Origin: Oscillospiraceae bacterium | GTDB lineage: Bacteria > Bacillota > Clostridia > Oscillospirales > Ruminococcaceae | Direction: 5' to 3' | DNA: 64,000 nucleotides | NCBI GenBank assembly: GCA_022793675.1 | Contig: JAAWDH010000020.1 | Span: 3,297 to 67,296 of the forward strand | In this document: piece by piece, positions 14,973 to 56,357 of the stretch | How the letters are laid out: each line of letters opens with the position of its first letter | Numbering within the stretch: the first letter of the stretch is position 1 | Notes under the pieces: model-generated | Database searches by the model: none | What the model was told of the DNA's origin: nothing | Seen by the model: only the letters and a program-made list of their open reading frames with translations | Translations under genes and position numbers: made by a program

Positions 14973-15074
14973 GAATACGACGCTTTAGAGTACGACGCTT
15001 TTTGAAAAAAGCTTAGCAAAAACTTTTAATCGCTAGGGTCATTGAGTAAGCAGCCATAGCCGCCTACTGCGTCG
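14973..15074 (+). repeat. half copy of the modular repeat (A x2 - B - x - H)
   Basis: AATACGACG..AGTACGACG + CTTTTTGAAAAAAGCTTAGCAAAAACTTTTAATCGCTAGGGTC + ...GCCATAGCCGCCTACTGCGTCG. Shares all modules with 28231, 49643 and 56091. Confidence 0.85.
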
Positions 15075-15314
15075 AATGCGCTGTTAGCTGCGGCTCCCAC
15101 ATTTGGAAAACGGGTGCAGTTCAACCAGGTTTTCCCCAGACTTCACCGAGTTTTCCACATCCCATTTCCGACCGTTGGCCCGCATATTCCACCAAAAAGG
15201 CCCTCCATCCCGGATTTTCTCGCTGAAAAGCCAGGACAGAGGACTGATTTATCCCCAATGCGTTGTGATATTCTATAACTTTAATTTTTTGACCAGGGGC
15301 GCTGGTATCATGCC

Positions 15315-15872
15315 TTATTCTGCGAATTGCGCCGGGTTCCGCAAAGCCTCTGCTTCTGTTTGTGAAAGTTTTACGGCAAGGTCCAGCAGGGCGTCTTTTG
15401 CCAGCCCAGGCAGCAGCGGTACCGCGCCGGGGAAGACATCCAGCTTCGCGGCGTCGCTGCCTTCGCAGACGCTGAAGCGGAGCAATTCCTTGTAATCCCG
15501 CTTGGCTTCAGGGCTTTGCCCAGCTTTCAGTGTTTCTTCCTGCCAGAACGCGTAGGTGTATAGGAGGTTTTCCTCTGTGGTATCCCAGATGCCGGTTCCG
15601 TCGGTATCGCTGAGGAGCAGTTCGTCCAGGGCCTTGATTTGGGCTGCATCGGCGATAACGTATAGTTCGTTGCCGTCGGCGTCTAGGACTTGCCAGTAGT
15701 GCTGCTTGGCGCTGCTGATGTCAATTTGTTCCAGCGCTTCCAGCTCGCTCATAGCGCCGCCCAGCTGCTCCGTGACGTTGTGGAATAAGACGCCGCTGCA
15801 GGCGTTAAGGAGCAGGTTCAGGGGTACCAGGTAGGCAAGGATTTTCAAAAAGTTCTTCAAAAGCCATTTCAT
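15315..15872 (-). CDS. putative secreted/lipoprotein, last gene of the YtrA-ABC operon
   Basis: 185 aa. N-terminal hydrophobic signal with LLNAC (imperfect lipobox). Confidence 0.55.
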   Translation of the reverse strand: MKWLLKNFLKILAYLVPLNLLLNACSGVLFHNVTEQLGGAMSELEALEQIDISSAKQHYWQVLDADGNELYVIADAAQIKALDELLLSDTDGTGIWDTTEENLLYTYAFWQEETLKAGQSPEAKRDYKELLRFSVCEGSDAAKLDVFPGAVPLLPGLAKDALLDLAVKLSQTEAEALRNPAQFAE

Positions 15873-15887
15873 GGGTAAGCCTCCTTG

Positions 15888-16709
15888 TTAGTCCAGGTTC
15901 AGTTTGCGCTTCATAATCCAGTTGGTGAGCAGGAAACAGCCGCCGCCTAAAACAACCTGCAAAATTATCGACGACAGCAGCGCTGGGGAAGCAATCGCCG
16001 CTGGGTTGACACTGTTGCTGAGGAAAGCTTCAATGTCGCCGGAAGTGAGGGAAAGTATCAAAATCATGATGCCGACCGACAGGAACTGGGCGATTGTGTT
16101 GATAATCATATAGCCGGCCACCGAGCCTAAGAGCTTCTGCCGGGCGAAAAGCTGGCCAATAGCGATTGCGGCGTAGAACAGGCTGATCTGCGCCAGCAGC
16201 CCCACCAGCATAATAATGCCGATATAGCCAAACAGCGCGTTCAGGCTGATGCCGAATTCAGCGGCAAAGGCGGCGTTTGTTTTCCCATAAGAGCCGAGGG
16301 CCGTCCAGATTAAGTCCAGCGCTTCCCTGTTCAGAATCAGGATGGCGATGCCCGCAAGGGCGCTCAGCACCCCGAACAGCATCCAAATAGCGCCGGAAAA
16401 GGTCTTGGCGGTGATAGTGGAGAGGGGCGAGACCGGCAGCGTATGGGTCAGATAGCCCTCGTCGCAGACCATGCTTTTATAAAAACGCTGGACGATTACG
16501 AAAAAGGTCAGGATCACCGAAGCGATAATGGCAAAAATATAGAGGAACATGAACGCGCCCATAACTGTTCCGGCAAACGTGTTGTCAGAGGTGGAAAAAA
16601 TCTGGAGCATCAGCCGCCCCACAACCGACAGGATCATCACCGCGCCGTACAGCGGCGGCAGCACCTTGGACAGTGCCGCAAATTCGTATTTCATCAGTTT
16701 CCCTAGCAT
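15888..16709 (-). CDS. ABC-2 type transporter permease
   Basis: 273 aa with multiple TM helices. Overlaps the upstream ATPase gene by 7 nt. Confidence 0.7.
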   Translation of the reverse strand: MLGKLMKYEFAALSKVLPPLYGAVMILSVVGRLMLQIFSTSDNTFAGTVMGAFMFLYIFAIIASVILTFFVIVQRFYKSMVCDEGYLTHTLPVSPLSTITAKTFSGAIWMLFGVLSALAGIAILILNREALDLIWTALGSYGKTNAAFAAEFGISLNALFGYIGIIMLVGLLAQISLFYAAIAIGQLFARQKLLGSVAGYMIINTIAQFLSVGIMILILSLTSGDIEAFLSNSVNPAAIASPALLSSIILQVVLGGGCFLLTNWIMKRKLNLD

Positions 16710-18362: not shown

Positions 18363-18507
18363 GGGGGTTTTTGAAATTTTTTTCTGGCTTTTTCCAGCAG
18401 TCTAAAACCTGGCAAGAAAAGGCATACTAGAAGCGCAAAGAATTCCCAGCGATAAATCTTGAAAAACCGCGCATGGTAATTGTGTGTACCGGTTGTACCG
18501 ACAGACC

Positions 18508-18983
18508 ATTCGCGGCCAGCTGTGCTGGCAGACAGCAAGCCGGATTTCTGCTGCAGATAGACATGGCTGGTTCTCTTGCGGTCACGGGCAGGCAATTTAA
18601 GGAAGGAGATTTCGCTTGCTGCGGCAAGCGACCGAGGGCTCTGCCAGCTTTCGGCTTGACGAAAGCTAGACCCGCGATTTTTTGAAAAAAATCGAGTAAA
18701 ACTTTTTTCGCCAGGGCAACTGTGTGCAAAGCCATAAACATCTACTGCGTCGATAAGTTTTCTGGTTCTGCGCATCGACGCAGTAGGCGTGCAACTTTGC
18801 GCTGACAGGTACCCGGGCGATTAAAAGTTTTGCGGAGCTTTTTCAAAAGCGACCGTACTCCCGTACCCTATCGGCAGAACCGACGCAGTAGGCGTGCAAC
18901 TTTGCGCTGACGGGTACCCGGGCGAGTAAAAGTCTTTGCTAAGCTTTCTTCAGAAAGCGTCGTACTCTAAAAGTGTCGTATCC
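18508..18983. repeat. composite repeat locus (degenerate C, D-head, B variant, H hairpin, then two tandem H'-B'-A' units)
   Basis: 13-bp perfect hairpin CTACTGCGTCGAT (18742-18754 / 18774-18786). Units 18774-18868 and 18869-18983 both read CGACGCAGTAGGCGTGCAACTTTGCGCTGAC.GGTACCCGGGCGA.TAAAAGT.... Confidence 0.85.
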
Positions 18984-19008
18984 TTTAAAATTTAGGAGGA
19001 AACCTATT

Positions 19009-20590: not shown

Positions 20591-21373
20591 ATGGGAATGT
20601 ATAAACGGATTTTGATCAGCGACGATTCGGCTGAATTCCGGGCCTTATGCCAGGAAAGGCTGACCGAAAAGGGGTATTATGTCATCCTCAAGAAACGGGA
20701 TGGCCTGGAAGTCCTGTCTGCCATCCAGTCTGAGCGTCCAGACTTAGTGGTGATGGATGTCCAGATGCGGGGCATTGACGCATTGGGGATCCTGGGTGCG
20801 CTGAAAGGGCAGGCTGCGGATACGACCTTCCTCGTGACTTCGTCCTTTGAAAACAATATTGTCGAACGGGCTGTGTCGGAGGATTCCCGCTGCTGCTATA
20901 TGCTCAAACCGGCGGACGCCAACGTCTTGCTTGACCGGATCGATTTTATTTGCAGCCGGGACTTTTCGTCGCCGCAGGCCAGGCAGCCCAAAACGGTCAC
21001 CGTCCAGCAGCTGGAGGTCATGGTCACCGGGATCCTCCATAATATCGGCGTCCCAGCCCATATCAAAGGCTACCATTACCTGCGCGATGGCATCATCCTA
21101 TCTTTGACCGAGCCGGCTGCCATGAGTTCAGTGACCAAGGAGCTTTACCCCACCATCGCCAAGCATTTCAGCACCACAGCCTCCCGCGTAGAACGCGCCA
21201 TCCGTCACGCCATCGAAGTCGCTTGGGACAGAGGGGATGTGGACGTGCTCAACTCCTACTTCGGCTACACCATCCAGAATACCAGAGGGAAACCTACTAA
21301 TTCGGAGTTTATCGCGATGATTACGGATAAGATCCGGTTACAGGTACATCTGGAAGAACAAGGACAGCTTTAA
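20591..21373 (+). CDS. spo0A: sporulation master regulator Spo0A
   Basis: The receiver has SDD, D in VVMDVQM, T in LVTSS and K in MLKP. The C-terminal Spo0A_C domain reads HNIGVPAHIKGYHYLRDGI...TASRVERAIRHAIEVAWDRG...KPTNSEFIAMITDKIRL. ATG 20591 lies behind GGAGGA. Confidence 0.95.
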   Translation: MGMYKRILISDDSAEFRALCQERLTEKGYYVILKKRDGLEVLSAIQSERPDLVVMDVQMRGIDALGILGALKGQAADTTFLVTSSFENNIVERAVSEDSRCCYMLKPADANVLLDRIDFICSRDFSSPQARQPKTVTVQQLEVMVTGILHNIGVPAHIKGYHYLRDGIILSLTEPAAMSSVTKELYPTIAKHFSTTASRVERAIRHAIEVAWDRGDVDVLNSYFGYTIQNTRGKPTNSEFIAMITDKIRLQVHLEEQGQL

Positions 21374-21391: not shown

Positions 21392-21430
21392 CTGCCATGG
21401 CAAGTATACGCTATGGCAGTTGAATTTTTT
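21392..21430 (+). terminator. spo0A terminator
   Basis: CTGCCAT...ATGGCAG stem, then TTGAATTTTTT. Confidence 0.7.
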
Positions 21431-21440
21431 AGGGAAATTT

Positions 21441-21534
21441 GTCGCTTTCTGGCCGCTTTCTGAAGAGAAGCTCTAGCTTAGCAAAGACTTTTAATCGCCA
21501 GGGTACGCATCTGCGCAGATTTGCCCGCGTCGAT
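21441..21534 (+). repeat. partial copy (B with AGCTTAGC insertion + degenerate H)
   Basis: CGCTTTCTGAAGAGAAGCTCTAGCTTAGCAAAGACTTTTAATCGCCAGGGTAC matches the left arm of 41274 and 56091. Confidence 0.75.
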
Positions 21535-21628
21535 AACTGCTGCTAATTTAAAAAATTTGCAGCAGGGCTTTATTTTTGAGGAAAAAAGGTGTATACTGAT
21601 AAAAGTAAAAAGAAAGGTGGCGGGGGCG

Positions 21629-27141: not shown

Positions 27142-28131
27142 TTATTTTTTCCGGTTGCCTATAGCCTTTATGATGCAGAGGACAGCGGGATAGAGGACGC
27201 CCGCGACGGCCCAGATAACCCAGCTGTACTGCCAGGAATTAGTAGGCAGGCTAATTGCCAGAAAAATCGCGGTAACCGCCATCCAGTAAGCGGTGGAGAA
27301 GGCAGACAGCACCCCTTTTCCCCGTTTTTCCCGCCGGGAGTATTCGCCTTCTTCCAGTAAGCGTTCAAAGCTTCCCCAGATCGTGCCGTTATAGGTGAAT
27401 ATTGCCGCTCCTATCCCGGCAATCAAAAAGGTTAGGGCGAGCATTGCCACGAGAAACAGCGTGTTTTCGCTGAAAATTATGCCGCCGAAAAGTGGGAGCA
27501 GTGAGCCGACGCAAGCGGCCGCGCCGATGATGTTCAGGTGGGTGTGCGTGTCCTTGTAAAGGGCCTGTTGTTCTTTGACCAGCCCTGTCACGCCGTATTC
27601 GGTTTCGATATTTTCTGTTTCAAGGTAGTCGAAGGCGGATAGCTTGCTGCTATTGGCGATGAAAATCGCCACAGCCGCCGCGACAATCAAAATCATAACA
27701 ACCATACCGATCCCGCCGGCGGCGTTTTCCGACAGCCGCTTGGGGTATTGGCTGTTTATTGCGCCTAAAAACAGCAGGCAGACCGGCGACAGTACGCATA
27801 AAAGGACGCCCAAAGCCATCCATTTTGCCGAAGCAAGCTTCAGCGCCAGGAACTGCTGGGCTTCGGCCAGCGAAATCCGCCGGAGTTTCGGCGCATCTTC
27901 CGCCGGGATAGCGCCGACAGCCTCTGCCGTTTCCAGCTCATCCTTTAATAGGTAGTCGGTGGAAACGCCGAAGATTCGGGCCAGCTGCAAAATCTTTTCC
28001 AGCTCGGGCACTGATTGCGCGCCTTCCCATTTGGAAACAGACTGCCGGGTAACCCCCATCTGCTCAGCCAGGTCCTCCTGCGACCAGCCGCTCCTTTTGC
28101 GAAGCTCAATCAATTTGTCTGCAAAAATCAT
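27142..28131 (-). CDS. XRE-family HTH regulator fused to a multi-pass membrane domain
   Basis: N-terminus LRKRSGWSQEDLAEQMGVTRQSVSKWEGAQSVPELEKILQLARIFGVSTDYLL (Cro/C1 HTH), followed by about 5-6 TM helices. Confidence 0.85.
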   Translation of the reverse strand: MIFADKLIELRKRSGWSQEDLAEQMGVTRQSVSKWEGAQSVPELEKILQLARIFGVSTDYLLKDELETAEAVGAIPAEDAPKLRRISLAEAQQFLALKLASAKWMALGVLLCVLSPVCLLFLGAINSQYPKRLSENAAGGIGMVVMILIVAAAVAIFIANSSKLSAFDYLETENIETEYGVTGLVKEQQALYKDTHTHLNIIGAAACVGSLLPLFGGIIFSENTLFLVAMLALTFLIAGIGAAIFTYNGTIWGSFERLLEEGEYSRREKRGKGVLSAFSTAYWMAVTAIFLAISLPTNSWQYSWVIWAVAGVLYPAVLCIIKAIGNRKK

Positions 28132-28230
28132 GGTTCATCTCTCCTTGTCGGTTTTGATGAAACAAGTCTATCATTTTCCCCGGTTGCCTGCCACCAACCG
28201 CCGCCTTTCAATTTGTCAACCGCTGGTTGC

Positions 28231-28332
28231 GGGGGGTACGGGAGTACGGGTCGCTTTTGAAAAAGCTCCGCAAAACTTTTAATCGCGGGGCAGTCGTCAG
28301 CACTCACAAAACATCCTACAGCGTCGTGTAGG
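28231..28332 (+). repeat. half copy (A-B-x-H)
   Basis: GGGGGGTACGGGAGTACGGGTCGCTTTTGAAAAAGCTCCGCAAAACTTTTAATCGC...CCTACAGCGTCGTGTAGG. The A-B part is nearly identical to 38392-38440. Confidence 0.85.
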
Positions 28333-28386
28333 CTAGTAGCAATTATCGCCGCATTGATGAATAAAACGGAGAAGCAGTTCTGTCAG

Positions 28387-29298
28387 TTAGTTATCGGCAA
28401 AGTAGTCACTATCGATTCGTTTCAAATTATACGTTTTTTGAACAGAGACGCCAACCCCATGTTCAATCATCAGTTTAGTTAGCTGTTTGCCATCTACAAG
28501 AATGATGTGTTGGCTTTCGGCAAACTCTCTAGCTCCCTTGGAAAATTTTGCTGTTGTAATAAACAGTCCCTTTTCTACCTTGGGCGGCCCGGCCATTGCA
28601 CCTAAAAATTGCTGTATGTCCGATCGTTCGATAGTTCGCTCAGCCGCCCAACGCTTAGCCTGAACATAAATTAAATTAAAACCTAGTTTATCCTCATGAA
28701 TAATGCCATCAATTCCTCCATCATGGCTGTCCTGTGTTTTTAAACCGCTGCCGTAACCCATGGCTTCCATTAAATCTAACACAAGCTTTTCAAAAAAGTA
28801 AGGAGTTTGATCAAAAATTTCAGATAATAATTCTTCTGCCAACTGGTCGTTAAGCAATTGGTACATCCGCTCCATAGTTTCTTGAGGAGGAGTGTCTGTT
28901 TCTGAGTTAAAGCTAGAATCCGGAGGGGATGTTTTAGCTCCTTTCTTAGCAGCTCTAGCTCTTTCATGTTCTGCAAACTCTGGCGATGTTTCAATTAATA
29001 TGGCGTATGTAATTTCAATATTACGTTCGCACAACTGCTTTCCTCTTTCCGTAATTTTGAGATAGCCTCTCCTTGGGTTTTCAATCGCTTTTGCATTAAG
29101 TAGATTCGTTCTTGCCCATCCTATTAAACTAGCATATTGTGTCTGCTGACCACTTGCTACGCGTAAAGTTAATTCCTCTCCCGACAATTCCAATAAATCG
29201 GCAATACGTTCACGTACCTCTTTAAGTTCATGTTCTTTTTCGTCACTGAGTACTTTGAGGATGGGGAGGTGTAGAGCGATAATTTTTGGTAATGCCAT
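28387..29298 (-). CDS. mrr: Mrr-like type IV (modification-dependent) restriction endonuclease
   Basis: Mrr_N winged helix at the N-terminus. The C-terminal catalytic core DGGIDGIIHEDKLGFNLIYVQAKRW has a (D..D/E-x-K)-type motif. The gene is clearly AT-richer than its flanks. Confidence 0.8.
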   Translation of the reverse strand: MALPKIIALHLPILKVLSDEKEHELKEVRERIADLLELSGEELTLRVASGQQTQYASLIGWARTNLLNAKAIENPRRGYLKITERGKQLCERNIEITYAILIETSPEFAEHERARAAKKGAKTSPPDSSFNSETDTPPQETMERMYQLLNDQLAEELLSEIFDQTPYFFEKLVLDLMEAMGYGSGLKTQDSHDGGIDGIIHEDKLGFNLIYVQAKRWAAERTIERSDIQQFLGAMAGPPKVEKGLFITTAKFSKGAREFAESQHIILVDGKQLTKLMIEHGVGVSVQKTYNLKRIDSDYFADN

Positions 29299-29367
29299 GA
29301 TGTTGCCCTCTTTTCTTGAATTTTTATTTATATTTTACATGATTTTGTCGTTTGGTGCAACCCCTAT

Positions 29368-29979
29368 CTACTTTCTTTTTTCATCAGTCCACTGTTTCGC
29401 TTCCTCAAGCACCCGTTCCATATAGTCGTGCTTGCCGTCGGTGTAGGCAGTCTGGACGTTGCCGCATTCCTGGGCCAGCCTGGCTTTCAGCGCTTCGTAT
29501 TCCCTGGCCTTTTCGGGGAAAGCGTTCATGTAGTCCCTGAAGTCGACATAATTGTGCCATTGAAGGCTGTCATAAACGAGGATGTGTACCTGGCAGGTCC
29601 GGATATTGTCTTCGCTTTGGATAATATAGAGCAGGTTATTGCTGAAACGGTTGTGGGCTTTTTGGAAGCCGGCGGCCTCCAGCTGGGCGAGCACTGGCTC
29701 CAGCCCCTCAAGGCTCGCTGTTCCGACCGCAATGTCGAGGATGGGTTTAGCCTGGATACCGGCAATAGCAGTGCTGCCGATGTGCTGGATGTCCAGCGCG
29801 GCCGTCCCGAAAATCCCTTTCAGCTGGGCGATAATTTTTTCAGCTGCCGGTGCCCAGGCTTCTTGGTGCGGGACAATTTGTACTGTTCCGCGTTTCAGAC
29901 CGATAATGGGCAATTCCTTGTCTAGGTAATCCTGCCCCAGCGGCGTAAGCATCAGGCGCTCGGTTTTGATTTCAGTCAT
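29368..29979 (-). CDS. GrpB family protein (UPF0157)
   Basis: IQHIGSTAIAGIQAKPILDI and VHILVYDSLQWHNYVDFRDYM are typical GrpB motifs. Confidence 0.8.
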   Translation of the reverse strand: MTEIKTERLMLTPLGQDYLDKELPIIGLKRGTVQIVPHQEAWAPAAEKIIAQLKGIFGTAALDIQHIGSTAIAGIQAKPILDIAVGTASLEGLEPVLAQLEAAGFQKAHNRFSNNLLYIIQSEDNIRTCQVHILVYDSLQWHNYVDFRDYMNAFPEKAREYEALKARLAQECGNVQTAYTDGKHDYMERVLEEAKQWTDEKRK

Positions 29980-31339
29980 CTGTCTTTCCCCTTCGTGTCA
30001 GCAGCGCGGCGCATTCTACATGGCCTGTCCGCGGGAACAGGTCCACGCCGCGGTAGCGTTCGAGCCGATAGCCCTTTTCGCAGAGCATTTTCGCATCCCT
30101 GGCCGCAGTGGCGGGGTTGCAGGAGATCATCACCACTTTTTTGGGGGCCATCCGCAGGATGCTTTCCAGCACTTCGGCGCTGCAGCCCTTCCGGGGCGGG
30201 TCGATGATAACCACGTCCGGCGTTTCGCCCCGGTCGGCCAGCGCCTTTGCCGCTTCTCCGGCGTCGGCGCAGAGGAACTCTGCCTCCATCCCATTACGGC
30301 GGGCATTTTTCTGGGCGGAAGCCACCGCTTCGGCCACCACTTCGACGCCGATGAGCTTTTTTACCTGGCTGTAGGCCCCAAGCCCGATGGAACCGATGCC
30401 GCAGTAAAGGTCGAGCAGGCGTTCCTTTCCGGTAAAGCCGGCGTATTCATACGCCAGCCGGTAGAGCGTTTCGGCCTGCGGGCTGTTGACCTGGTAAAAG
30501 GCGGCTGCTGGGATGGAAAGCTGCACGTCAAGCAAAGTATCGTCAATACCATCCTTGCCGTAAAGCAGGATGCTGTGTTTCCCTAGGATGACGTTGGTCT
30601 TGTCGGCGTTGATGTTCAGCATCACGCTGACGATTTCCGGGAAGGCCGCCGTCAGCGCCTGGACAAACTCTTCTAAAAAGGGCACTTTGCGGCTGGTGGA
30701 GACCAGGCAGACCATCAGCTCGCCGCTTTTCGCCCCTTTCCGCAGGAACAGGTGCCGCAGAAGCCCTTTGCCGGTCGTTTCATCGTAGGCACTGACCTTG
30801 TAGCGCTCCATCAGCCCCAGCACCGTCCGCACCACCGGCCCGAACATCTCGTCCTGTAGCAGGCAGTCGTCTGCTTTGACCAGCCTGTGGCTGCGCCGGG
30901 CGTAGAACCCCGCCGTAGGCCGTCCGTCCTTATCCGTCCCCAGCGGGTACTGGGCCTTATTGCGGTAATGCTCCTGGGCGTCGCAGCCGATAATCGGTTC
31001 CGGCGTCAGCGCAAAGCCGCCCAGCCGTTGGAAGGCGTCCTGTACCGCCTTCCCCTTCAGCCGCAGCTCCTCCTCATAACGGATATGCCGGAAGGCGCAG
31101 CCGCCGCACTGGCGGAAAACAGGGCAGTCAACCGGCTGCCTGGCCGGCGACGGTGTAATCACCTGTTCCAAAATGCCGTATCCCACGTTTTTCTGCACTT
31201 TGACCGCCTTAAAACGGACCCTATCGCCGACAGCTGTCATCGGCACGAATACCGCAAAGCCGTCCACCCGGCAAAGCCCGCTGCCCTCCAGCGTCAAATC
31301 CTCTATGACAGCCTCATAGCTCTTATTTTTCTGGATCAC
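29972..31339 (-). CDS. 23S rRNA (uracil-5-)-methyltransferase RlmD/RumA family
   Basis: GTG 31339 lies behind AAGAAGGGGG. TRAM-like N-terminus, Fe-S Cys cluster (CPVFRQCGGCAFRH), SAM fold DLYCGIGSIGL and catalytic ISCNPAT. The upstream 147 codons of the ORF-track call look non-coding. Confidence 0.85.
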   Translation of the reverse strand: MIQKNKSYEAVIEDLTLEGSGLCRVDGFAVFVPMTAVGDRVRFKAVKVQKNVGYGILEQVITPSPARQPVDCPVFRQCGGCAFRHIRYEEELRLKGKAVQDAFQRLGGFALTPEPIIGCDAQEHYRNKAQYPLGTDKDGRPTAGFYARRSHRLVKADDCLLQDEMFGPVVRTVLGLMERYKVSAYDETTGKGLLRHLFLRKGAKSGELMVCLVSTSRKVPFLEEFVQALTAAFPEIVSVMLNINADKTNVILGKHSILLYGKDGIDDTLLDVQLSIPAAAFYQVNSPQAETLYRLAYEYAGFTGKERLLDLYCGIGSIGLGAYSQVKKLIGVEVVAEAVASAQKNARRNGMEAEFLCADAGEAAKALADRGETPDVVIIDPPRKGCSAEVLESILRMAPKKVVMISCNPATAARDAKMLCEKGYRLERYRGVDLFPRTGHVECAALLTRRGKTDD

Positions 31340-34284: not shown

Positions 34285-34305
34285 AAGCATACTCAAATCT
34301 AAAAA

Positions 34306-34346
34306 GGGAGGCCTTCGCAGGGCTTCCCTTTTGGTCTGTTTTTTGG
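34306..34346 (+). terminator. terminator after the 33931-34284 ORF
   Basis: GGGAGGCC-loop-GGCTTCCC, then TTTTGGTCTGTTTTTT. Confidence 0.7.
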
Positions 34347-34551
34347 AAGGGGATTTCGCTCGCTGCGGCGAGCGACCAAGGGCTCTGCCCTGGACCCGCT
34401 CAAGGGGCGCGCCCCTTGAGAATCCCAATCCTTGGCAACATTAGGAACTTGTTTTCGACGCAGTAGGCGTGCGGGTCTGTGCTGACGTGTATCCGGGCGA
34501 TTAAAAGTTTTGCGGAGCTTTTTCAAAAGCGACCGTACTCCCGTACCCCCC
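34347..34551. repeat. composite copy (D-head, 22-bp perfect palindrome, H'-B'-A'), ends 1 nt from the glnN stop
   Basis: GAAGGGGATTTCGCTCGCTGCGGCGAGCGACCAAGGGC..., then CTCAAGGGGCGCGCCCCTTGAG (34399-34420), then CGACGCAGTAGGCGTGC...CCGGGCGATTAAAAGTTTTGCGGAGCTTTTTCAAAAGCGACCGTACTCCCGTACCCCCC. Confidence 0.85.
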
Positions 34552-38365: not shown

Positions 38366-38750
38366 GAGGATACGAGAGGTACGGAGAGTACGGGGGTACG
38401 GGTCGCTTTTGAAAAAGCTCCGCAAAACTTTTAATCGCCCGGGTACGCATCAGCACAGCTTAATCCACCTACTGCGTCGGTACCGCTGACCAACCGCGAC
38501 ATCTCACGCCATGTTTTTCGCTTACAAGCCGCCGAGCAGAGCCAGGCGGCAAACGTGAACAGTCTGCCGGCACAGCCGGCCGCCTACTGCGTCGATAAGC
38601 AGATGGAACAGCCTGCCTGTAACCGCGGGAGAACCGGCTATGCCTTTCCGCAGCAGAAATCCGGCTTGCTGGATTTCCGACGCGAAGTAAAAGTTTTGCG
38701 AACTTAGCTCTGCTAAGCTTGGCTTTCTTTAAAAGCGACCGTACTCTAGG
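38366..38750. repeat. full composite copy filling the purA-guaA spacer (A x4 - B - H - E - H - C' - B' - A')
   Basis: Starts the nucleotide after the purA stop and ends 20 nt before the guaA ATG. 38431-38579 is the inverted twin of 53474-53622. Confidence 0.9.
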
Positions 38751-41273: not shown

Positions 41274-41516
41274 GGGGGAATACGGGAGTACGACGCTTTC
41301 TGAAGGAAAGCCTAGCTTAGCAGAGCTAAACTGCAAAGACTTTTCATCGCCAGGGTACCTAAATGCCCTAACATAAAATCCTACTGCGTCGGTAACAGGT
41401 GGTTCCGCTTACCGACGCAGTAGGATATTTTTAAGAGGCACTCAGATGTCTTAGCGATTAAAAAGTTTTGCAAGGCTTTTTCAAAAGCCGTCGTACTCCC
41501 GTATTCCCCCGTATCC
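41274..41516. repeat. complete palindromic copy of the modular intergenic repeat (MITE-like): A-B-H | H'-B'-A'
   Basis: 41274-41295 GGGGGAATACGGGAGTACGACG is the exact reverse complement of 41489-41510. There is an internal 17-bp perfect hairpin, TCCTACTGCGTCGGTAA (41379-41395 / 41409-41425). Core B is on both arms (left arm with an AGCCTAGCTTAGCAGAGCTAA insertion). Confidence 0.9.
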
Positions 41517-44102
41517 TTAGATATAGACGACGGGCAGCAGGATTTCGATTTCATTGCCGTTGTCCCAGCGGACGTTGATCCGGCAGAGGCCGCGTTCGCC
41601 TTCTTTCCCCTCCAGGATGGTGAAATAGTTGTCTTTGGCGGTCTCGCTGCCGTCTTCCGCTTCCCAGCGGACGGTAATTTCTGATGAGGAGAAGTTTCCA
41701 AATCCTATTTCCAGCAGCGCGCCGCTGGGGATGGTGTTATAGCCGATTTCTTCCGCTGCAAGCATCTGCAGCTGGCGGGCGTTCTGTTCCTCATTGTCTT
41801 CGCTGTTCCAGCGTTTGAACAAGACGGCTGTCTCTGGGATGATTTCCAACGCCATCCCTTGCGGCAGCATACGGCTTAGGTGGGCGGTGAGCACCTTGAC
41901 GGAAATGGGTAGGTCCTTGCTGGCAATATAGGCGGTGTTGGCCGGGGCGTTTCCGTCTTCCCAGCTTTCCAGTTGTAGGCCGCCTGCGCCGTCGGGGGCA
42001 AAGGACAGGATGCGGGTCAGGGTGCTGCCGTCGGTTTGCAGGACGTGGATGGCGGCTTCTATGCTGTCTGCCGCCGGATCCAGCGGCGCAGCGTAGGTTT
42101 CGCCGGGGACCCAGTTTGCCCCGTCGCTGATGTCTTGGAACATACCGCTGACCGTGACATTGAAGGTGCCAGGGATCGCGTCTTCCGGGATCGTAATGGT
42201 GAAGCTGCCGTTTTCGTAACGGATACCGCTTTGGATCTTATCGACCATAATCTGGCGTTCGTAGCTTGCAAATTCCGGTTCCAGTACCTCGGTTTTGTAA
42301 GCTTTCAGCTGGTCGAGAAGGGGCGCGTCTTCGCTTAGGGAAGTCTTCCCTTTCAGCCAGTCCATATACTCGAACATAGCTGCTTTTTGGTCTTCCCTGC
42401 TGAAGGTGATATGGCCGTCTAAGCTGCTGCAGAGTAAGAAGCTGTCAAGGAGGTGGTTATTCAGTTTGGCCGTGAAGCCGGCGATTTCCTCTGGCTCAAA
42501 CTCCATCCCATGCGGCCCAGTCGTCATTGCAAAGGATACCGAGGCTTCATCGGCGATCTGCGTTTCGCCCTTCTCGTTCAGCCAGAACAGCTGGTAGCTG
42601 TATTCTGCCGCGCCTTGGTAGACGGCGGGGCTATAACAGAGGAGGTAGTCTTTGCCGTCTATGGCGCAGAGGCTGTAGGCGCGCCAGCCCACATGGGAGG
42701 TGGAGGCTATATCGCTCCAAAGGGTTTCCCCAGCGGCATTGGTTACGGTGAGGGTAACGTTGCCGTTGCCGTTTTCCAGCCCGGTCAAGTCGCAGGTTAT
42801 CGTTTCTGCCGTCCCATCATGGGTCAGGTCAGCGGTGAAGGTGGTCGTATCTGGGTAATAGGCGTCATTCTGCTCTTTTAGGAAGGTTTCAAAGCCGCCT
42901 TCGCGGATATCCATTTCCCCGCCGAATGGGGACGACAACAGGACATAGTCCGGCGGGCCTTCCATTTCTCCGCTGCCGGCCGTCAGCGTCCAGCCGTTTT
43001 CCTTTAAAGGGTAACGCATCACATAAAGGCCGCTGCCGATGTCTTCCCCTTCAAAGCCTGCAAGGTCGTCCCAGGAAAGCCCTTCCCCTTTTTGGGCAAG
43101 CGCGCGGACGTCATCGATACCCATTGCCTGGAGGCTGCCGCTGGGGGGAGCGCTGCCTGCCGCGGTCCTGGGGTTGGCGGCCAAACCCAGCGCCAGCGCT
43201 GCTGCCGCCGCCATAGCCGCCGCCGTCAACCAGAAGGCTGGTTTCTTATAATTCAGCACATTTTTGATTCTCATCTTGATATTCTCCTCTCCAAAGGCCA
43301 GCGGGCCGGCGTACCAAACCTGCCGCCCTGCCGCCATTGACAAAAGCGAAGCCGAATATTCCTTTTTGATCTCCGGCCCCAGTTTTTTAAGCACTTGTTC
43401 ATCGCAGGACATTTCCATATCCGCCGCCATCAGCCGGAAGGCCAGCCAGGCCAGCGGGTTGAACCAGTGGATGCAGAGTGTAAGGTTCGCCAGCGCCTTT
43501 ATCAGATAATCCCGCCGGCGGATGTGGGTCAGCTCATGCAGCAGCACATATTCCTTTTCACGCTCCGGAAGTCCGGCTGGCAGGTAAACGCGGGGTTTTA
43601 TCAGCCCCAGCACAAACGGGGTCTTCAGCCCGGACTGCTCGTAGATATTCCCCTGCTGCCAGCGGGCGTTTTTCAGCTTCCCGTGCAGCCGGATTGAAAG
43701 GGCGGCGCTTCCGCCCAGCATCGCCGCCCCTACGCCCAGCCAAACCATAGCCAGCGCCGTCATTGCGTCGGGCCGCTTTGCCGGCGTCGGAACCGGCGAG
43801 ACATCGGCGGGAGACGTCGGCCCCGGCAGGATTTGAGCGGGCGGCAAAGGCTGCGCCGCTGCCGGCGGCGTCCAGACAGGGCCTGCGGCGGGGGACTGCG
43901 CGGCGGGTATCCTCGGCAGCAGGCTGAAGCCGCTTTCAAAAGAGACTGGGCAGCAAAGCCTGAAAAGCACGACTATCCAAAGGCAGTAGGAAGCCGTCCG
44001 GGGCGCCTTTTTCAAGCAAAACCTCGCTAAAGTTACCGCTGCGATGACAAACGATCCTGTCAGACTCATCCGTAAAACGGCGGCGAAAACCTCCCGCAGC
44101 AT
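41517..44102 (-). CDS. M56-family BlaR1/MecR1-like membrane metalloprotease with a large non-PBP extracellular domain
   Basis: HEXXH in LLHELTHIRRRDYL and the TM topology fit BlaR1. The C-terminal ~550 aa lack SxxK/KTG penicillin-binding motifs. 1-nt overlap with blaI. Confidence 0.85.
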   Translation of the reverse strand: MLREVFAAVLRMSLTGSFVIAAVTLARFCLKKAPRTASYCLWIVVLFRLCCPVSFESGFSLLPRIPAAQSPAAGPVWTPPAAAQPLPPAQILPGPTSPADVSPVPTPAKRPDAMTALAMVWLGVGAAMLGGSAALSIRLHGKLKNARWQQGNIYEQSGLKTPFVLGLIKPRVYLPAGLPEREKEYVLLHELTHIRRRDYLIKALANLTLCIHWFNPLAWLAFRLMAADMEMSCDEQVLKKLGPEIKKEYSASLLSMAAGRQVWYAGPLAFGEENIKMRIKNVLNYKKPAFWLTAAAMAAAAALALGLAANPRTAAGSAPPSGSLQAMGIDDVRALAQKGEGLSWDDLAGFEGEDIGSGLYVMRYPLKENGWTLTAGSGEMEGPPDYVLLSSPFGGEMDIREGGFETFLKEQNDAYYPDTTTFTADLTHDGTAETITCDLTGLENGNGNVTLTVTNAAGETLWSDIASTSHVGWRAYSLCAIDGKDYLLCYSPAVYQGAAEYSYQLFWLNEKGETQIADEASVSFAMTTGPHGMEFEPEEIAGFTAKLNNHLLDSFLLCSSLDGHITFSREDQKAAMFEYMDWLKGKTSLSEDAPLLDQLKAYKTEVLEPEFASYERQIMVDKIQSGIRYENGSFTITIPEDAIPGTFNVTVSGMFQDISDGANWVPGETYAAPLDPAADSIEAAIHVLQTDGSTLTRILSFAPDGAGGLQLESWEDGNAPANTAYIASKDLPISVKVLTAHLSRMLPQGMALEIIPETAVLFKRWNSEDNEEQNARQLQMLAAEEIGYNTIPSGALLEIGFGNFSSSEITVRWEAEDGSETAKDNYFTILEGKEGERGLCRINVRWDNGNEIEILLPVVYI

Positions 44103-44574: not shown

Positions 44575-44606
44575 TAAAAAGCGGATTCCCCGTAAAAGGA
44601 ATCCGC
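44575..44606 (-). terminator. hairpin terminator between the repeat array and the blaI promoter
   Basis: GCGGATTCC/GGAATCCGC 9-bp stem, followed on the minus strand by TTTTTA. Confidence 0.6.
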
Positions 44607-45183
44607 TGCCAAGCAGTGGTTGCCGACAGTAGGCGTCGGCCGGCGTGTCGCCGCAGACAATTCGCGGCCGGCTGTGCCGGCAGACAATTCGCGGCCGGCT
44701 GTGCCGGCAGACAATTCGCGCCGGAAATCCAGCAAGCCGGATTTCTGCTGCGGAAAGGCATAGCCGGTTCTCCCGCGGTTACGGGCAGCCGGCTGTGCCG
44801 GCAGACAATTCGCGCCGGAAATCCAGCAAGCCGGATTTCTGCTGCGGAAAGGCATAGCCGGTTCTCTCGCGGTTACGGGCAGCCGGCTGTGCCGGCAGAC
44901 AATTCGCGCCGGAAATCCAGCAAGCCGGATTTCTGCTGCGGAAAGACATAGCCGGTTCTCCCGCGGTTACGGGCAGCCGGCTGTGCCGGCAGACAATTCG
45001 CGCCGGAAATCCAGCAAGCCGGATTTCTGCTGCGGAAAGGCATAGCCGGTTCTCCCGCGGTTACGGGCAGGTGATTCCAGCTGCTCCTATCGGCAGTAAC
45101 TACCGACGCAGTAGGCGGCTATGGCTGCGCACAAAGGTACCCTAGCGATGAAAAGTCTTTGCCAAGCTTTCTTCAGAAAGCGG
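44607..45183. repeat. composite locus: 2 extra 27-bp sub-units + 4 x 94-bp tandem C units + H'-B'
   Basis: Period exactly 94 bp (units start at 44695, 44789, 44883 and 44977), with 2 SNPs between units. Followed by CCGACGCAGTAGGCGGCTATGGCTGC...GGTACCCTAGCGATGAAAAGTCTTTGCCAAGCTTTCTTCAGAAAGCG. Confidence 0.9.
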
Positions 45184-45221
45184 AAAAAAGCGGCAAGCGT
45201 CCTTAAAAGGAAGCCTGCCGC
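45184..45221 (-). terminator. terminator of the small acidic protein gene
   Basis: Minus strand: GCGGCAGGC...GCTTGCCGC, then TTTTTT. Confidence 0.7.
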
Positions 45222-49642: not shown

Positions 49643-49873
49643 GGGTACGGGGATACGAGGGGTACGGGGAGTACGACGCTTTCTGAAGAAAGCTTGGCAA
49701 AGACTTTTAATCGCCCGGGTACCCGCCGGCACAGCTTTACACGCCTACTGCGTCGGTAGGGATAGCTGGAATGACCTGCCCGTAACCGCGGGAGAACCGG
49801 CTAAATTTTTCCGCAGCAGAAATCCGGCTTGCTGGATTTCCGGCGCGAATAGTCCGCGGCGACACGCCGCCCG
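49643..49873 (+). repeat. copy A x4 - B - x - H - C' (+ C-sub')
   Basis: GGGTACGGGGATACGAGGGGTACGGGGAGTACGACGCTTTCTGAAGAAAGCTTGGCAAAGACTTTTAATCGCCCGGGTAC...CCTACTGCGTCGG...CCCGTAACCGCGGGAGAACCGGCT...GCAGCAGAAATCCGGCTTGCTGGATTTCCGGCGCG. Confidence 0.85.
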
Positions 49874-49911
49874 CAAAACACCGCCTGCGGCTGGGTATAC
49901 GCAGGCGGTGT
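49873..49911 (-). terminator. terminator of the Gfo/Idh/MocA-isomerase operon
   Basis: 12-bp perfect stem ACACCGCCTGCG/CGCAGGCGGTGT, followed on the minus strand by TTTTG. Confidence 0.75.
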
Positions 49912-51777: not shown

Positions 51778-52016
51778 AATCAAACGCTCCTTTTCGATTG
51801 CCTGGTTCTGCCGCCAGGCAATGTAATCGTTTTCACTTTTAGTATACACAGTTGTCTGCCCTAGCGCAATAGGCAAAAGGGATAAACTTTCCGGCTGCAT
51901 CTTGTAGGAACCTACAATTCTGTCGTTCGGCCCGCTTTTCCATTTGCAGAATATCGAAGGAAGGCAGCCGATTTGCTCCTTAGCAGGTTGGGAAGCAGAA
52001 TCAACAAAAACAGTCT

Positions 52017-52067
52017 CCGCGATTTTTGAAAAAAACGCGTAAAACCTTTTTCCTTGGCAATCTTAGG
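52017..52067 (+). repeat. D-tail/B-variant fragment
   Basis: CCGCGATTTTTGAAAAAAACGCGTAAAACCTTTTTCCTTGGCAATCTTAGG is near-identical to the reverse complement of 5161-5215. Confidence 0.7.
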
Positions 52068-52075
52068 AAAAGGTA

Positions 52076-52103
52076 GAGCCGCCATAAAGGCGGCCCGTTT
52101 TTT
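52076..52103 (-). terminator. terminator downstream of trxB
   Basis: GAGCCGCC-ATAAA-GGCGGC(C)C hairpin flanked by A/T tracts (bidirectional look). Confidence 0.55.
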
Positions 52104-53341: not shown

Positions 53342-53415
53342 AATTTTTACCTCCTTGAATTGCACGGGAACAAAATGCCCGCAAAAAATCGAAAAAGAGT
53401 TGAGTTTACTCTTCT

Positions 53416-53444
53416 ATTATAGTATAATAAAATCAATTTGTCAA
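53416..53444 (-). promoter_or_regulatory. consensus sigmaA promoter of trxA-trxB
   Basis: Minus strand: TTGACA-17-TATAAT. The -35 abuts the repeat element that starts at 53447. Confidence 0.7.
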
Positions 53445-53446
53445 AG

Positions 53447-53770
53447 CCGGCTGTGCCGGCAGACAGTTCGCGGCCGGCTGTGCCGGCAGACTGTTCGCGT
53501 TTGCCGCCTGGCTCTGCTCGGCGGCTTGTAAGCGAAAAACATGGCGTGAGATGTCGCGGTTGGTCAGCGGTACCGACGCAGTAGGTGGATTAAGCTGTGC
53601 TGATGTGTACCCGGGCGATTAAAAGTTTTGCGAGCTTAGCTCTGCTAAGCTTGGCTTTCTTCAAAAGCGACCGTACTTCTCGTACTCCTCGTACCCCTCG
53701 TACTCCTCGTACCCCTCGTACTCCTCGTACCCCTCGTACCCCTCGTACTCCTCGTACCCCCGTATTCTCC
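53447..53770 (-). repeat. copy C-sub x2 - E' - H' - B' - A' x11
   Basis: Inverted twin of the 38.4-kb copy. Ends in an 11-unit 9-bp tract (53672-53770, CGTACYCCT). Confidence 0.9.
53672..53770. repeat. 9-bp microsatellite, 11 units (CGTACYCCT)
   Basis: Read directly: cgtacttct cgtactcct cgtacccct cgtactcct cgtacccct cgtactcct cgtacccct cgtacccct cgtactcct cgtaccccc gtattctcc. Confidence 0.95.
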
Positions 53771-53814
53771 CCGTTTCTGGGAAAGATATGCAAGCGGCAA
53801 TGAAAGGAGCTGTT

Positions 53815-54996
53815 ATGGAAAAGTCCACCTTTCGCGACTGGATGCTTTATCTGGCCGTCCTTGTTTTCAGCGCCGCCTTTTTGGCGGGCGGCTGGCGCTA
53901 CGCCACTGCCGGCCGGCAGCTGCTGGGGCAGAATATCAACGGGACGGTGTCCCCGTCGGTCAAGGCGAAGCTTGTTGAAACAATCGCCAGCAACGAAATC
54001 TACAGCCAATATACCGGCGCTGTCACCGAGACCCGTACCGTCAGCTACGCCGTTTTTACCGAAGGGGCCGACAAAGGCAAACAGGTGCTGGTCACCCAAG
54101 TCATGGACAGCACAGCGATGCTGCTGGAAACGCCGTTTTCGCCTGGCGACCGGGTGTTCGTTTACCAAGGCGAGAACGAGTACGGCGAGGCCCAATGGTT
54201 CGTAGCCGGGCCGGTGCGGACGCCCTGGCTTTTGGGGCTGACAGCAGCCTTTGTGCTGCTGGTGGTGCTGTTTGGGCGGGGGAAAGGGGTCCGGACGATC
54301 CTTTCGCTGGCCTTGACCTGCATGGCGGTGTTTTTTGTGCTGGTACCGGCGATTGTCAGCGGCCGCAACATTTATCTGTGGTCGATTATAACCTGCATTT
54401 ATACCATTATTGTAACCTTGTCGCTGGTAAGCGGCTGCACTTTCAAGAGCTTGGCGGCGGCGCTGGGGTGCCTAGGCGGCGTTGGGGTGGCGGGGGCGAT
54501 CACGTTAATCAGCGAGCGCGCTTTGCGCATGACGGGCTTGGTGGACGAGGACTCGATGCTGCTTCTGTTTATCAATGAAGAGCGCCCCATCGACTTGAAA
54601 GCGCTGATTTTTGCCGCCATTATCATTGGCGCGCTGGGGGCGACGATGGATGTTGCGATGTCCATCAGCTCCGCCCTTACCGAGCTGATGCGCAACCTGC
54701 CGGGGATGCCTTTCTGGTCTGTTGTCCGTTCGGGGCTTTCCATCGGCCAGGATATTATGGGCACAATGTCCAACACTTTAGTGTTGGCTTATGTAGGAAG
54801 CGGACTTCATGTAACGCTGCTGTTTTTGACCTATTACGAGCGGCTGGAAGACATCTTAAACGTAGAAATGATCGCAGCAGAGCTGCTTCAGGCGCTGGCG
54901 GGGAGCATCGGCATCCTTTTCGCCATCCCAGCTACGACGTTGGCCGCCGCCTTTTTCCGGCGGCCCTTCAGCAGACAAGAAAAGGAGGCCTCTTGA
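53815..54996 (+). CDS. YibE/F family membrane protein
   Basis: ATG 53815 lies behind AAAGGAG. One N-terminal TM helix, an extracellular segment and ~7 further TM helices. The YibE/F-like pattern is recognised from memory. Confidence 0.7.
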   Translation: MEKSTFRDWMLYLAVLVFSAAFLAGGWRYATAGRQLLGQNINGTVSPSVKAKLVETIASNEIYSQYTGAVTETRTVSYAVFTEGADKGKQVLVTQVMDSTAMLLETPFSPGDRVFVYQGENEYGEAQWFVAGPVRTPWLLGLTAAFVLLVVLFGRGKGVRTILSLALTCMAVFFVLVPAIVSGRNIYLWSIITCIYTIIVTLSLVSGCTFKSLAAALGCLGGVGVAGAITLISERALRMTGLVDEDSMLLLFINEERPIDLKALIFAAIIIGALGATMDVAMSISSALTELMRNLPGMPFWSVVRSGLSIGQDIMGTMSNTLVLAYVGSGLHVTLLFLTYYERLEDILNVEMIAAELLQALAGSIGILFAIPATTLAAAFFRRPFSRQEKEAS

Positions 54997-56090
54997 TGAA
55001 CAAAATCGGTCTTTACATCCATGTGCCCTTCTGCGCCTCAAAGTGCGGCTACTGCGATTTTTACTCCCGGGTGCGCCCCGACCTGATTGCGCCTTATATT
55101 GCTGCGCTGAAAGAGGAGCTTCGGCGCTGGGAGGGGCGTGGTCTGCAGGCGGACACCCTCTTTTTCGGGGGCGGGACGCCTTCGCTGCTGCCGCCAAGGG
55201 AAGTCGGCGCGCTGATAAGCCTTTGCCGGCGCATTTTCTCCCTTGGGGCGGAGGCGGAGGTTACGCTGGAAGCCAATCCCGATACCGTCAGCCTTGAAAG
55301 CCTTGCAGGATACCGCCGGGCCGGCGTCAACCGCCTTTCGATGGGGATGCAGTCGGCGGTGGCCAAGGAGCTGCGCCTGCTGGCCCGTTCCCACAGCCCC
55401 GAGGCGGTAAAGCTGGCGGTCGGCGCGGCTAGGGAGGCGGGCTTCGATAATCTAAGCCTGGATTTGATGCTGGGGCTGCCCCGCCAGACGATGGACAGCC
55501 TAAAATATTCCCTAGAAGCCGCCACAGCCCTAAACCCCGAACACCTCTCCTGCTATATCCTGAAGATAGAAAAAAACACCGCCTTTAACCGCCGGCTGAT
55601 GCAGCGTTACTGCCCCAGCGACGACCTGACCGCTGATTTTTACCTGGCTGTTTCCCATTTTTTGCAGGAACACGGCTACGCCCACTATGAAATCTCCAAT
55701 TTTGCTCAGCCCGGCCGCGAAAGCCTCCACAACCTGAAATACTGGCGCAGCGAAGATTACCTGGGGTTTGGCCCGGCTGCCCACAGCTGTTTTGCGGGCC
55801 AGCGCTTTTTCCATCCGGCCGACGTTGTGCAATATATCAACACCAAAGGCCAGGATCGGATTGCCGACGGGCCAGCCGGGTCGGCGGAGGAACGGCTGAT
55901 GCTCGCCCTGCGGCTGGCGGAAGGGGTCTGCCCCCAAAACCTGCCCGACAGTTTTGACTGGGCGGATTTTATCAGCCGCTGTGCCCCCTATGAAAAAGGC
56001 GGCCTGATGGCCCGGACCGACGCCGGCGGCATCCGCCTCACCGAGCGGGGCTTCCTGCTCTCCAACAGCATCCTCGCCAACCTTTTATAG
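54996..56090 (+). CDS. hemW: radical SAM heme chaperone HemW (HemN-like, oxygen-independent coproporphyrinogen oxidase family)
   Basis: LYIHVPFCASKCGYCDF (CxxxCxxC), GGGTPS and RLSMGMQS. ATG 54996 lies behind AAAGGAGG and overlaps the upstream stop. Confidence 0.9.
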   Translation: MNKIGLYIHVPFCASKCGYCDFYSRVRPDLIAPYIAALKEELRRWEGRGLQADTLFFGGGTPSLLPPREVGALISLCRRIFSLGAEAEVTLEANPDTVSLESLAGYRRAGVNRLSMGMQSAVAKELRLLARSHSPEAVKLAVGAAREAGFDNLSLDLMLGLPRQTMDSLKYSLEAATALNPEHLSCYILKIEKNTAFNRRLMQRYCPSDDLTADFYLAVSHFLQEHGYAHYEISNFAQPGRESLHNLKYWRSEDYLGFGPAAHSCFAGQRFFHPADVVQYINTKGQDRIADGPAGSAEERLMLALRLAEGVCPQNLPDSFDWADFISRCAPYEKGGLMARTDAGGIRLTERGFLLSNSILANLL

Positions 56091-56357
56091 GGGTACGGGA
56101 GATACGAGAGTACGACGCTTTTTTGAAAAGAAAGCCTAGCTTAGCAAAGCTAAGCTGCAAAAAACTTTAATCGCTAGGATACACGCCTGCACAGCCATAG
56201 CCGCCTACTGCGTCGATAGCTGCTGGAACCACCTGCCCGTAACCGCGGGAGAACCGGCTATGTTTATCCGAAGCAGAAATCCGGCTTGCTGGATTTCCGG
56301 CGCGAATTAAAAGTTTTGCGGAGCTTTTTCAAAAGCGACCGTATTCCCCCGTATCCC
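56091..56357. repeat. full composite copy (A x3 - B(ins) - x - H - C' - B' - A' x2), starts 1 nt after the hemW stop
   Basis: Left end GGGTACGGGAGATACGAGAGTACGACGC, right end GCGACCGTATTCCCCCGTATCCC (inverted). The internal modules match 38366 and 49643. Confidence 0.9.

Follow-up and report, generated by a model that had tools for sequence, protein, structure and literature searches.

A dense mosaic family of intergenic repeats, probably MITE-like, with copies abutting stop codons in an Oscillospiraceae bacterium

The 64,000-nucleotide stretch of an uncultured gut Oscillospiraceae bacterium analysed here (assembly GCA_022793675.1, contig JAAWDH010000020.1; referred to as the window) contains a family of mosaic intergenic repeats at very high density, and several copies begin or end directly at a stop codon. 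These repeats probably constitute a lineage-specific, non-coding and non-autonomous mobile family that resembles MITEs (miniature transposable elements with inverted repeats) and uses a TA or TAG target within an NTAR context. A first-pass annotation made from the sequence alone had described the repeats and proposed either a strong insertion-site preference or a selected role at mRNA 3' ends. The family is new but belongs to a familiar type of element and opens no new biological principle; what is notable is its density, its tandem 9-mer tips and the explanation for its position at stop codons.

In the window, a motif scan yielded 17 exact matches to GTACGRGRR, with 1.8 expected, and 15 matches to CCTACTGCGTCG with at most one mismatch, with 0.2 expected. 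Self-BLASTN of the window delimited 13 repeat loci (Table 1). All 12 loci listed in the first-pass annotation were recovered in this way, ten of them with start coordinates within 0-14 nt, and the listed starts 18508 and 44607 were found again but lay 19 nt and 30 nt off. Two degenerate loci could be confirmed, out of about three that had been claimed. A profile hidden Markov model (HMM) was built from 16 aligned arms, the arm being the basic unit of the family, and gave 18 matches in the window, of which 16 are arms, one is a degenerate arm (11912-11988) and one is a half arm. Tandem Repeats Finder reported a 94-nt unit in 4.0 copies with 98% matches, a 27-nt sub-unit, and a run of the 9-mer tract with 9.6 copies. 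The elements are 100-570 nt in size, and the open reading frames (ORFs) overlapping them are all spurious. Based on an approximate gene map, 5.2% of the window is repeat sequence, and for the non-genic DNA alone the share is about 39%. A scan of the whole window with the Rfam covariance models returned no matches, either at the gathering threshold or at E <= 1.

An arm is about 100 nt long and consists, from the outside to the inside, of an A tract, a B hairpin, a variable stretch and the motif H. Module A is composed of 1-10 tandem 9-mers of the form RRRGTACGR. Module B is a hairpin, GCTTT(C)-TGAA-(G)AAAGC, with a constant UGAA loop and a stem of variable length and composition; within the arm it is followed by AAAACTTTTAATCGC, the variable stretch and CCTACTGCGTCGGTA. 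After the B hairpin, an optional second hairpin (CTAGCTTAGCAGAGCTAAGCT) can precede GCAAAACTTTTAATCGCCCGGGTAC, and about 20 variable nucleotides separate GCAAAACTTTTAATCGCCCGGGTAC from H, which is CCTACTGCGTCGGTA itself. Every arm contains a short inverted repeat made of an outer TACGACGC and an inner GCGTCG(G)TA. In complete elements, A-B(-H) arms are located at both ends and form terminal inverted repeats. The inner modules are P, a 27-nt hairpin unit, C with 67 nt, the 94-nt tandem unit formed by P and C together, and x with about 75 nt. Solo arms were found at 11872, 14973, 21441 and 28231 and on the viral contig L091. The earlier description of a BOX/BIME-like mosaic organisation is accurate, with arms occurring solo, paired or around inner modules.

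Folding was analysed for elements and modules. The inverted arm pair at 41276-41516 forms a single 241-nt hairpin (-128.9 kcal/mol, z = -14.3), and the folds of complete elements are more stable than those of shuffled sequence (z = -14, -3.9 and -2.7). The two arms of one element are of different subtypes and are therefore not co-adapted. Consensus folding of the arm revealed no consensus structure and no covariation beyond the small B hairpin. For the 67-nt C module, consensus folding showed no covariation, for which reason a structured-RNA reading of this module was dropped.

The abutment of stop codons that had been noted at purA, hemW, glnN and the M56 gene was confirmed. On the forward strand, the TAG of purA (38363-38365) and the TAG of hemW (56088-56090) are directly followed by elements starting at 38366 and 56091. 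The TAA codons of glnN (complement of 34553-34555) and the M56 gene (complement of 41517-41519) directly adjoin elements ending at 34552 and 41516. When each element of the window loci was placed uniformly within its spacer, 0.2 of the 15 element ends facing a gene 3' end were expected at distance 0, compared to the four observed (P = 3e-5). It had also been noted that the A tract faces the gene, which is a trivial consequence of complete elements having A tracts at their two tips. At the 14973 copy, the preceding TAG is not a stop codon, since the true gene there encodes an Rrf2 regulator on the other strand. Two further abutting stops were found on other contigs. On the metagenome contig L112, TAG is directly followed by AGTACGG, and the gene is putatively similar to a phage head-tail adaptor. 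On the ENA contig L152, whose repeats are only 80-90% identical to those of the window, TAA is directly followed by AGGAGTACG. None of the six abutting stops is a TGA, each being TAG or TAA; the genes in the window end with TAA in 30 cases, TAG in 10 and TGA in 9.

The bases outside the A tract also show a bias. A TA followed by a purine is found there at 9 of 15 arms, compared to 25% in other intergenic DNA (P = 0.004), and at 11 of 17 junctions when the contigs L151 and L152 are added (P = 6e-4). The four-base junction contexts are TTAG, CTAA, ATAG and CTAG. Direct repeats of TAG or TTAG flank three elements, namely those at 11872, 14973 (TTAG) and 38366 (TAG). Together with the single TAG of an empty allele, this enrichment and these direct repeats support the strong insertion-site preference that had been proposed as one of the two options.

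The empty allele was found at the degenerate solo arm 11872-12003, the only locus with a presence/absence polymorphism with precise ends. This arm is present in the window and in at least six other contigs (L129-L131, L134, L137 and L138), and it is absent from at least five contigs of other samples (L092, L132, L133, L135 and L136), the strains being about 99% identical. TAG borders the insert, and the empty allele has only one copy of this TAG. Further polymorphisms concern the composition of the elements. In strain L001, the left arm at purA is swapped for another arm variant from the first base past the TAG, with flanks that remain 99% identical. The array at 44637-45185 has two 94-nt units fewer in L102, a 16-nt A-unit deletion is present at 18489-18990 in L092 and L093, and the 21441 arm shows an 11-nt indel in L092. 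Overall, the divergence between strains is 4.5-4.7% for repeats and 0.7-0.9% for genes, so that the repeats diverge about five times faster. Two Logan contigs of other samples (L095:1-456 and L096:1-586) match the window at 18383-18633 up to or into the 18489 locus and then continue with different genes; either the repeats act as breakpoints of rearrangements between strains or these contigs are chimeric.

The distribution of the family was assessed in relatives and public collections. An identical purA is present in the metagenome-assembled genome (MAG) GCA_948504515.1 and in ENA, JGI and Logan assemblies, and GCA_949738835.1 carries the neighbouring gene 15888-16709. The next purA proteins belong to uncultured bacteria and are 84%, 82% (this one labelled Oscillospiraceae) and 76-77% identical, followed by those of Fournierella, Gemmiger and Faecalibacterium with about 72%. 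The arm HMM detected no arms in about 1.3 Mb from 88 relatives, including the purA relatives at 84% and 76%. The last residue of the protein is unchanged in element-free relatives, as seen for purA in the 84% relative and for glnN in the 76% relative, and the elements have therefore arrived without altering the proteins. A strict B-H pattern (CTTTTMATCGC N25-33 CCTACTGCGTCG) had no hits among the GTDB species representatives, a collection evidently without samples holding this species, and one match each in JGI metagenome contigs and IMG/VR. BLASTN of complete elements against plasmid and phage collections gave no match. Using translated repeats as pseudo-protein queries, only 8-9 small ORFs were retrieved, mostly on contigs shorter than 1 kb. 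Since diverged copies with the same architecture and junctions occur on two short ENA contigs, and one annotated ORF of an NCBI Oscillospiraceae MAG is a translated repeat copy, the arm family is lineage-restricted but not limited to one strain. Copies are also located on two phage or prophage-like contigs, L091 and L112, the latter being presumably phage-like based on the resemblance of its flanking proteins; a search for empty sites of these two copies found no related phages. Literature searches found no description of this repeat family.

Taken as a mobile family, the repeats would have spread by transposition, with arms inserting at a TA inside the NTAR contexts observed at the junctions (TTAG, CTAA, ATAG and CTAG). 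The insertion probably duplicates TA or TAG, and a transposase encoded elsewhere in the genome would be responsible. Once inserted, copies may be reshuffled when they recombine with one another or undergo gene conversion, and slippage may act in the 9-mer and 94-nt tandems. A TA(G/A) target together with a purine as the first base of the element tip would provide a mechanistic reason for repeats located exactly at stop codons. If an element entered a TAA or TAG stop at its TA, this would recreate TA plus a purine, i.e. a stop codon, and leave the protein unchanged, so that such a stop would be both a preferred and a harmless landing site. The reconstructed empty site between purA and guaA, GAT TAG GCATAAGAAGGGAGAATGCTA ATG, would be a normal operon junction.

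Several points weigh against this explanation. The complete elements 41276 and 56091 have no clean direct repeat, 4-6 of the 15-17 outer junctions lack the TA, and the TA-purine rule is post hoc, as it was set after viewing the data. At 11872-12003, the adjacent spacer is about 10% diverged between filled and empty alleles, and therefore a deletion or an allele replacement could also account for the polymorphism. Nearly all loci are fixed among the sampled strains, with 99-100% identity, and thus show no sign of ongoing transposition. The differences within repeats between metagenome assemblies are perhaps partly assembly noise. Furthermore, no transposase gene with matching ends was found in the window, the only recombinase being the serine recombinase of a probable prophage.

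Other explanations were considered. It can practically be dismissed that the repeats are an artefact of collapsed or chimeric copies in the assembly. Short-read contigs do often end inside arms, which is the expected effect of a genuine dispersed repeat on assembly, as seen for Logan contigs that break inside the 28231 arm, and the metagenome contig L001 carries a different arm at purA. However, the same elements were recovered at the same sites with 99-100% identity in independent contigs (ENA ERZ14651004/5, JGI 3300051405, the MAGs GCA_948504515.1 and GCA_949738835.1, and many Logan runs), covering SPAdes, JGI, MAG and Logan assemblies from many different samples, and the 497-nt hemW spacer with the 56091 element is the same in L139 and L140. 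The switch in L001 starts at the unique purA stop without a shared repeat k-mer. The repeats are thus real, and the earlier concern about assembly-collapsed copies is removed. Another candidate is a system similar to repetitive extragenic palindromes (REP), BIMEs or REPINs, in which the small hairpins (H, B, P and those of a second family) would be read as single-stranded DNA by an HUH tyrosine transposase (RAYT, IS200/IS605-related). The repeats would then spread without target duplication, and the adjoining TAG would be part of the recognition or cleavage site. H', CGACGCAGTAGG, holds both GTAG and, on the complement, CGTC, the tags of the REP super-families (PMC3733652), and inverted arm dimers are reminiscent of REPINs. 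The stems of the B hairpin and of the second family vary by compensated changes with constant loops, and most elements have no clear target duplication. Nevertheless, this origin is rather unlikely. The arms measure about 100 nt instead of 20-40 nt, the GTAG is paired inside the H/H' stem and is not an unpaired tag, and the TAG at the junctions is located at the tip of the A tract, about 100 nt from H and without a preceding G. Neither a Y1-transposase gene nor a RAYT is encoded in the window, three loci have flanking direct repeats, and the text of PMC3733652 does not mention Firmicutes or Clostridia.

The second option of the first-pass annotation, a selected RNA element at mRNA 3' ends, appears unlikely as well. 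Here, the purine-rich, Shine-Dalgarno-like 9-mers and the long hairpin, transcribed past the stop, would serve in stabilising, insulating or processing the mRNA, and this would account for the location at stop codons. Several copies separate a gene's stop from its terminator (glnN, terminator 34302-34332; gene 45203, terminator 44580-44607) and must therefore belong to the 3' untranslated region (UTR). The folding of complete elements compared to shuffled sequence, the UGAA-loop B hairpin kept across variants and the G-rich tract that begins the RNA in either element orientation are also in line with such a role. However, copies are found in divergent promoter regions and 5' UTRs too (18489-18990 and 53445-53780): 2 of the 13 loci are divergent, and others lie between promoter and gene. 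Solo arms cannot form the long hairpin, paired arms are of unmatched subtypes, the C module shows no covariation, and the arm has no consensus structure beyond the small hairpin. In addition, the elements contain no convincing intrinsic terminator, the repeats diverge about five times faster than genes, and relatives with 76-84% purA identity lack the element at the same genes. A selected 3'-end role is therefore unsupported. Also quite improbable is the possibility that the tandem 9-mers (GGGAGTACG-like) past stops are a selected RNA or DNA signal, or that an undescribed transposase reads multiple 9-mer sites. A selected signal might act by retaining ribosomes at termination or 30S subunits, or by hindering exonucleases; with either the signal or the transposase, the position at stop codons would be functional and not a by-product of target choice.

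The MITE-like interpretation can be compared to described systems. IS630 prefers TA within CTAG. The IS630-type MITEs RUP of Streptococcus pneumoniae and Correia/NEMIS of Neisseria are non-coding elements of 100-160 bp with terminal inverted repeats and hundreds of intergenic copies, which insert at TA and are co-transcribed with neighbouring genes (PMC2229807). The repeats share with them the small size, the lack of coding capacity, the terminal inverted repeats and, as proposed, the insertion at TA, whereas the arms are longer here, the tips consist of variable-number tandem 9-mers, inner modules are present, and no parent insertion sequence is known. No sequence similarity to described families in Rfam or in the plasmid and phage collections was detected. 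The BOX elements of S. pneumoniae have the architecture boxA-boxB(n)-boxC. They are similar in being a mosaic of few modules with a tandem middle module of variable number, here the 94-nt unit with four copies in the window and two in another strain. In contrast to BOX, the sequences are unrelated, and the end modules are inverted copies of each other that also occur solo.

GTAG- and CGTC-tagged REPs are 20-40-bp palindromes with an unpaired tag, and the termini of GTAG REPs have been reported to supply TAG stop codons (PMC3733652). The family described here shares with REP/BIME/REPIN sequences the clustering of small, GC-rich hairpins whose orientation alternates, the compensated stems and a location mostly past genes. 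In contrast, its units measure about 100 nt, their GTAG takes part in stem pairing, and some copies have direct repeats. By analogy, the proposed stop-regenerating insertion would match both TA-targeting MITEs such as RUP and the stop supply by GTAG REPs. ERIC/IRU elements and other small mobile repeats of enterobacteria are imperfect palindromes of 100-170 bp in transcribed intergenic regions, in which internal insertions lead to size classes (PMC2229807, PMC2759123). Whereas ERIC is of low copy number and conserved across genera, this family is restricted to one lineage with very high density.

Table 1. Repeat elements of the window, with the locus borders given by self-BLASTN. Parts of the composite locus are listed below it; a point marks elements without a single orientation.
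Element	Strand	Self-BLASTN locus	Composition	Context
5163-5266	-	5163-5266	Second-family module: three small hairpins, then GATTTTTTGAAAAAAATCGAGTAAAACTTTT	10 nt past the stop of a glutaminase-like gene
11872-12003	-		Degenerate solo arm (arm HMM match 11912-11988)	Presence/absence among strains
14973-15086	+	14966-15081	Solo arm A-B-variable-H	Upstream of the Rrf2 gene; TTAG on both flanks
18489-18990	.	18489-18990	Composite locus	In a divergent spacer, with a gap of 18 nt to spoIVB
18489-18597			P/C fragment (part of 18489-18990)	
18600-18758	+		Second-family module fused to arm (part of 18489-18990)	
18773-18868 and 18878-18990	-		Two arms (parts of 18489-18990)	
21441-21536	+	21427-21528	Solo arm, degenerate A tract and H motif	Directly past the T-run of the spo0A terminator
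28231-28328	+	28230-28326	Solo arm	Between the start of a helix-turn-helix regulator and the Mrr stop
34345-34552	-	34345-34553	Second-family module (34345-34446) and one arm (34453-34552)	A tract of the arm abuts the glnN stop; locus between the glnN stop and the bidirectional terminator 34302-34332
38366-38747	+	38363-38747	Complete composite A-B-H-x-P-H-C'-B'-A'	TAG on both flanks; occupies 382 of the 407 nt of the purA-guaA spacer
41276-41516	.	41276-41522	Inverted arm pair	Right tip abuts the stop of the M56 gene
44637-45185	-	44637-45208	Three 27-nt P units, four 94-nt P+C units, H'-B'; without A tract	Between the stop of gene 45203 and the terminator 44580-44607
49643-49877	+	49643-49877	A-B-H-C'-P' element	45 nt upstream of a GNAT gene
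51997-52068	+	52017-52067	Second-family fragment	Adjoins the terminator 52076-52096
53445-53780	-	53445-53748	Two P units, x', H', B', A' tract (9.6 9-mer copies)	Consensus promoter pair (53400-53444) on the left, YibE/F start (53788) on the right
56091-56362	+	56089-56362	Complete composite A-B-H-C'-B'-A'	Begins directly past the hemW TAG

Pfam scans of the window identified purA, guaA, a type III glutamine synthetase, a BlaR1/BlaI pair, spo0A, spoIVB, a hemW-like radical SAM gene, a YibE/F gene and others, and the window is an ordinary chromosomal region of a spore-former. By spacer type, three of the 13 loci are convergent, eight tandem and two divergent. The spo0A copy (by eye) and the 51997-52068 element are located past a terminator, and the 53445-53780 element sits between a promoter and its gene. 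Copies had been said to end 20-45 nt upstream of the start codons of guaA, spoIVB and the YibE/F gene, which holds for guaA with a gap of 25 nt; the gaps at spoIVB (18 nt) and YibE/F (7 nt) are shorter.

A promoter scan detected no sigma-70-like site inside the elements, and a reading of the elements as promoters was therefore rejected. A terminator scan inside the elements found no convincing hairpin with a U-tract, and strong terminators sit beside the elements; the sole matches inside were two low-ranked ones in the hairpin-2 module (38703-38717 and 53631-53653). Integron attC, CRISPR and riboswitch readings were dismissed based on housekeeping flanking genes, no spacer arrays and no Rfam matches. 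The 53445 element is directly adjoined at its left end by a perfect consensus promoter (TTGACA-17-TATAAT, minus strand, 53444-53416). From a plus-strand promoter at 53400-53428, transcription would cross all 336 nt of the element and reach the YibE/F gene. On the G-rich strand, some A tracts (49643-49676 and the complement of 53672-53757) fit the G-quadruplex pattern of four G3+ runs spaced by N1-7, and each 9-mer unit of the A tract holds a Shine-Dalgarno-like GGAG or GAGG.

A second family is interleaved with the arm family in the window, with copies at 5163-5266, 18600-18712, 34345-34446 and 51997-52068. Its GC hairpins, the stems of which come in four compensated variants, precede GATTTTTTGAAAAAAATCGAGTAAAACTTTT, and it shares a TTTTTGAAAAA...TAAAACTTTT core with the arm family. 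Outside the window, it is shared by several genera and was found in Negativibacillus massiliensis and two other relatives. Copies are located at L054:16497-16600, L054:7944-8028 and L052:13696-13778, the copy at L054:16497-16600 from Negativibacillus being homologous to the module at 5163-5266. The TTTTTGAAAAA/AAAACTTTT core of the second family resembles module B of the main family, and this likeness in sequence suggests that a wider superfamily may exist in Oscillospirales.

The repeats have practical consequences for genomics. As contigs repeatedly end inside arms, they explain the poor short-read assembly of this Oscillospiraceae lineage, whose longest public contigs with the looked-up genes span about 2-47 kb. 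The copy number of the 9-mer and 94-nt units, the arm swaps and the filled or empty site provide dense, modular and polymorphic markers for strain typing in metagenomes. The family is also a case for studying how non-autonomous elements come to occupy about 40% of the non-coding DNA of one bacterium.

Further features of the window were noted. The region 59143-63366, which continues beyond the end of the window, contains cotJB and, after it, an ORF of only about 35 residues similar to the N-terminus of CotJC (MWSYEKRLIHPVKIK...QLGGP). This ORF is cut at about 59620 and directly followed by a large serine recombinase on the minus strand (59628-61052), and then by a Bro-N protein, an ImmA/IrrE peptidase and a Cro/C1 repressor, with the GC content down to 0.45-0.50. 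The region looks like a prophage or a skin-like intervening element integrated in cotJC, and the cotJC/recombinase junction is also present in other samples (L139 and L141). A small ORF at 58377-58913 matches the C-terminal domain of Spo0A only and is a second, receiver-less Spo0A_C paralogue besides spo0A at 20591-21373. At 28000-30000, the GC content dips to 0.47 over the genes for an Mrr-type restriction endonuclease (28387-29298) and a GrpB-like protein, which may be a small acquired island. Finally, the gene at 5325-10616 encodes a surface protein of 1763 residues with SpaA, DUF7601 and DUF5979 domains and, at 5646-5739, an internal tandem repeat of 12/36 nt; the protein varies in length among strains, with at least 1739 residues called in L092.

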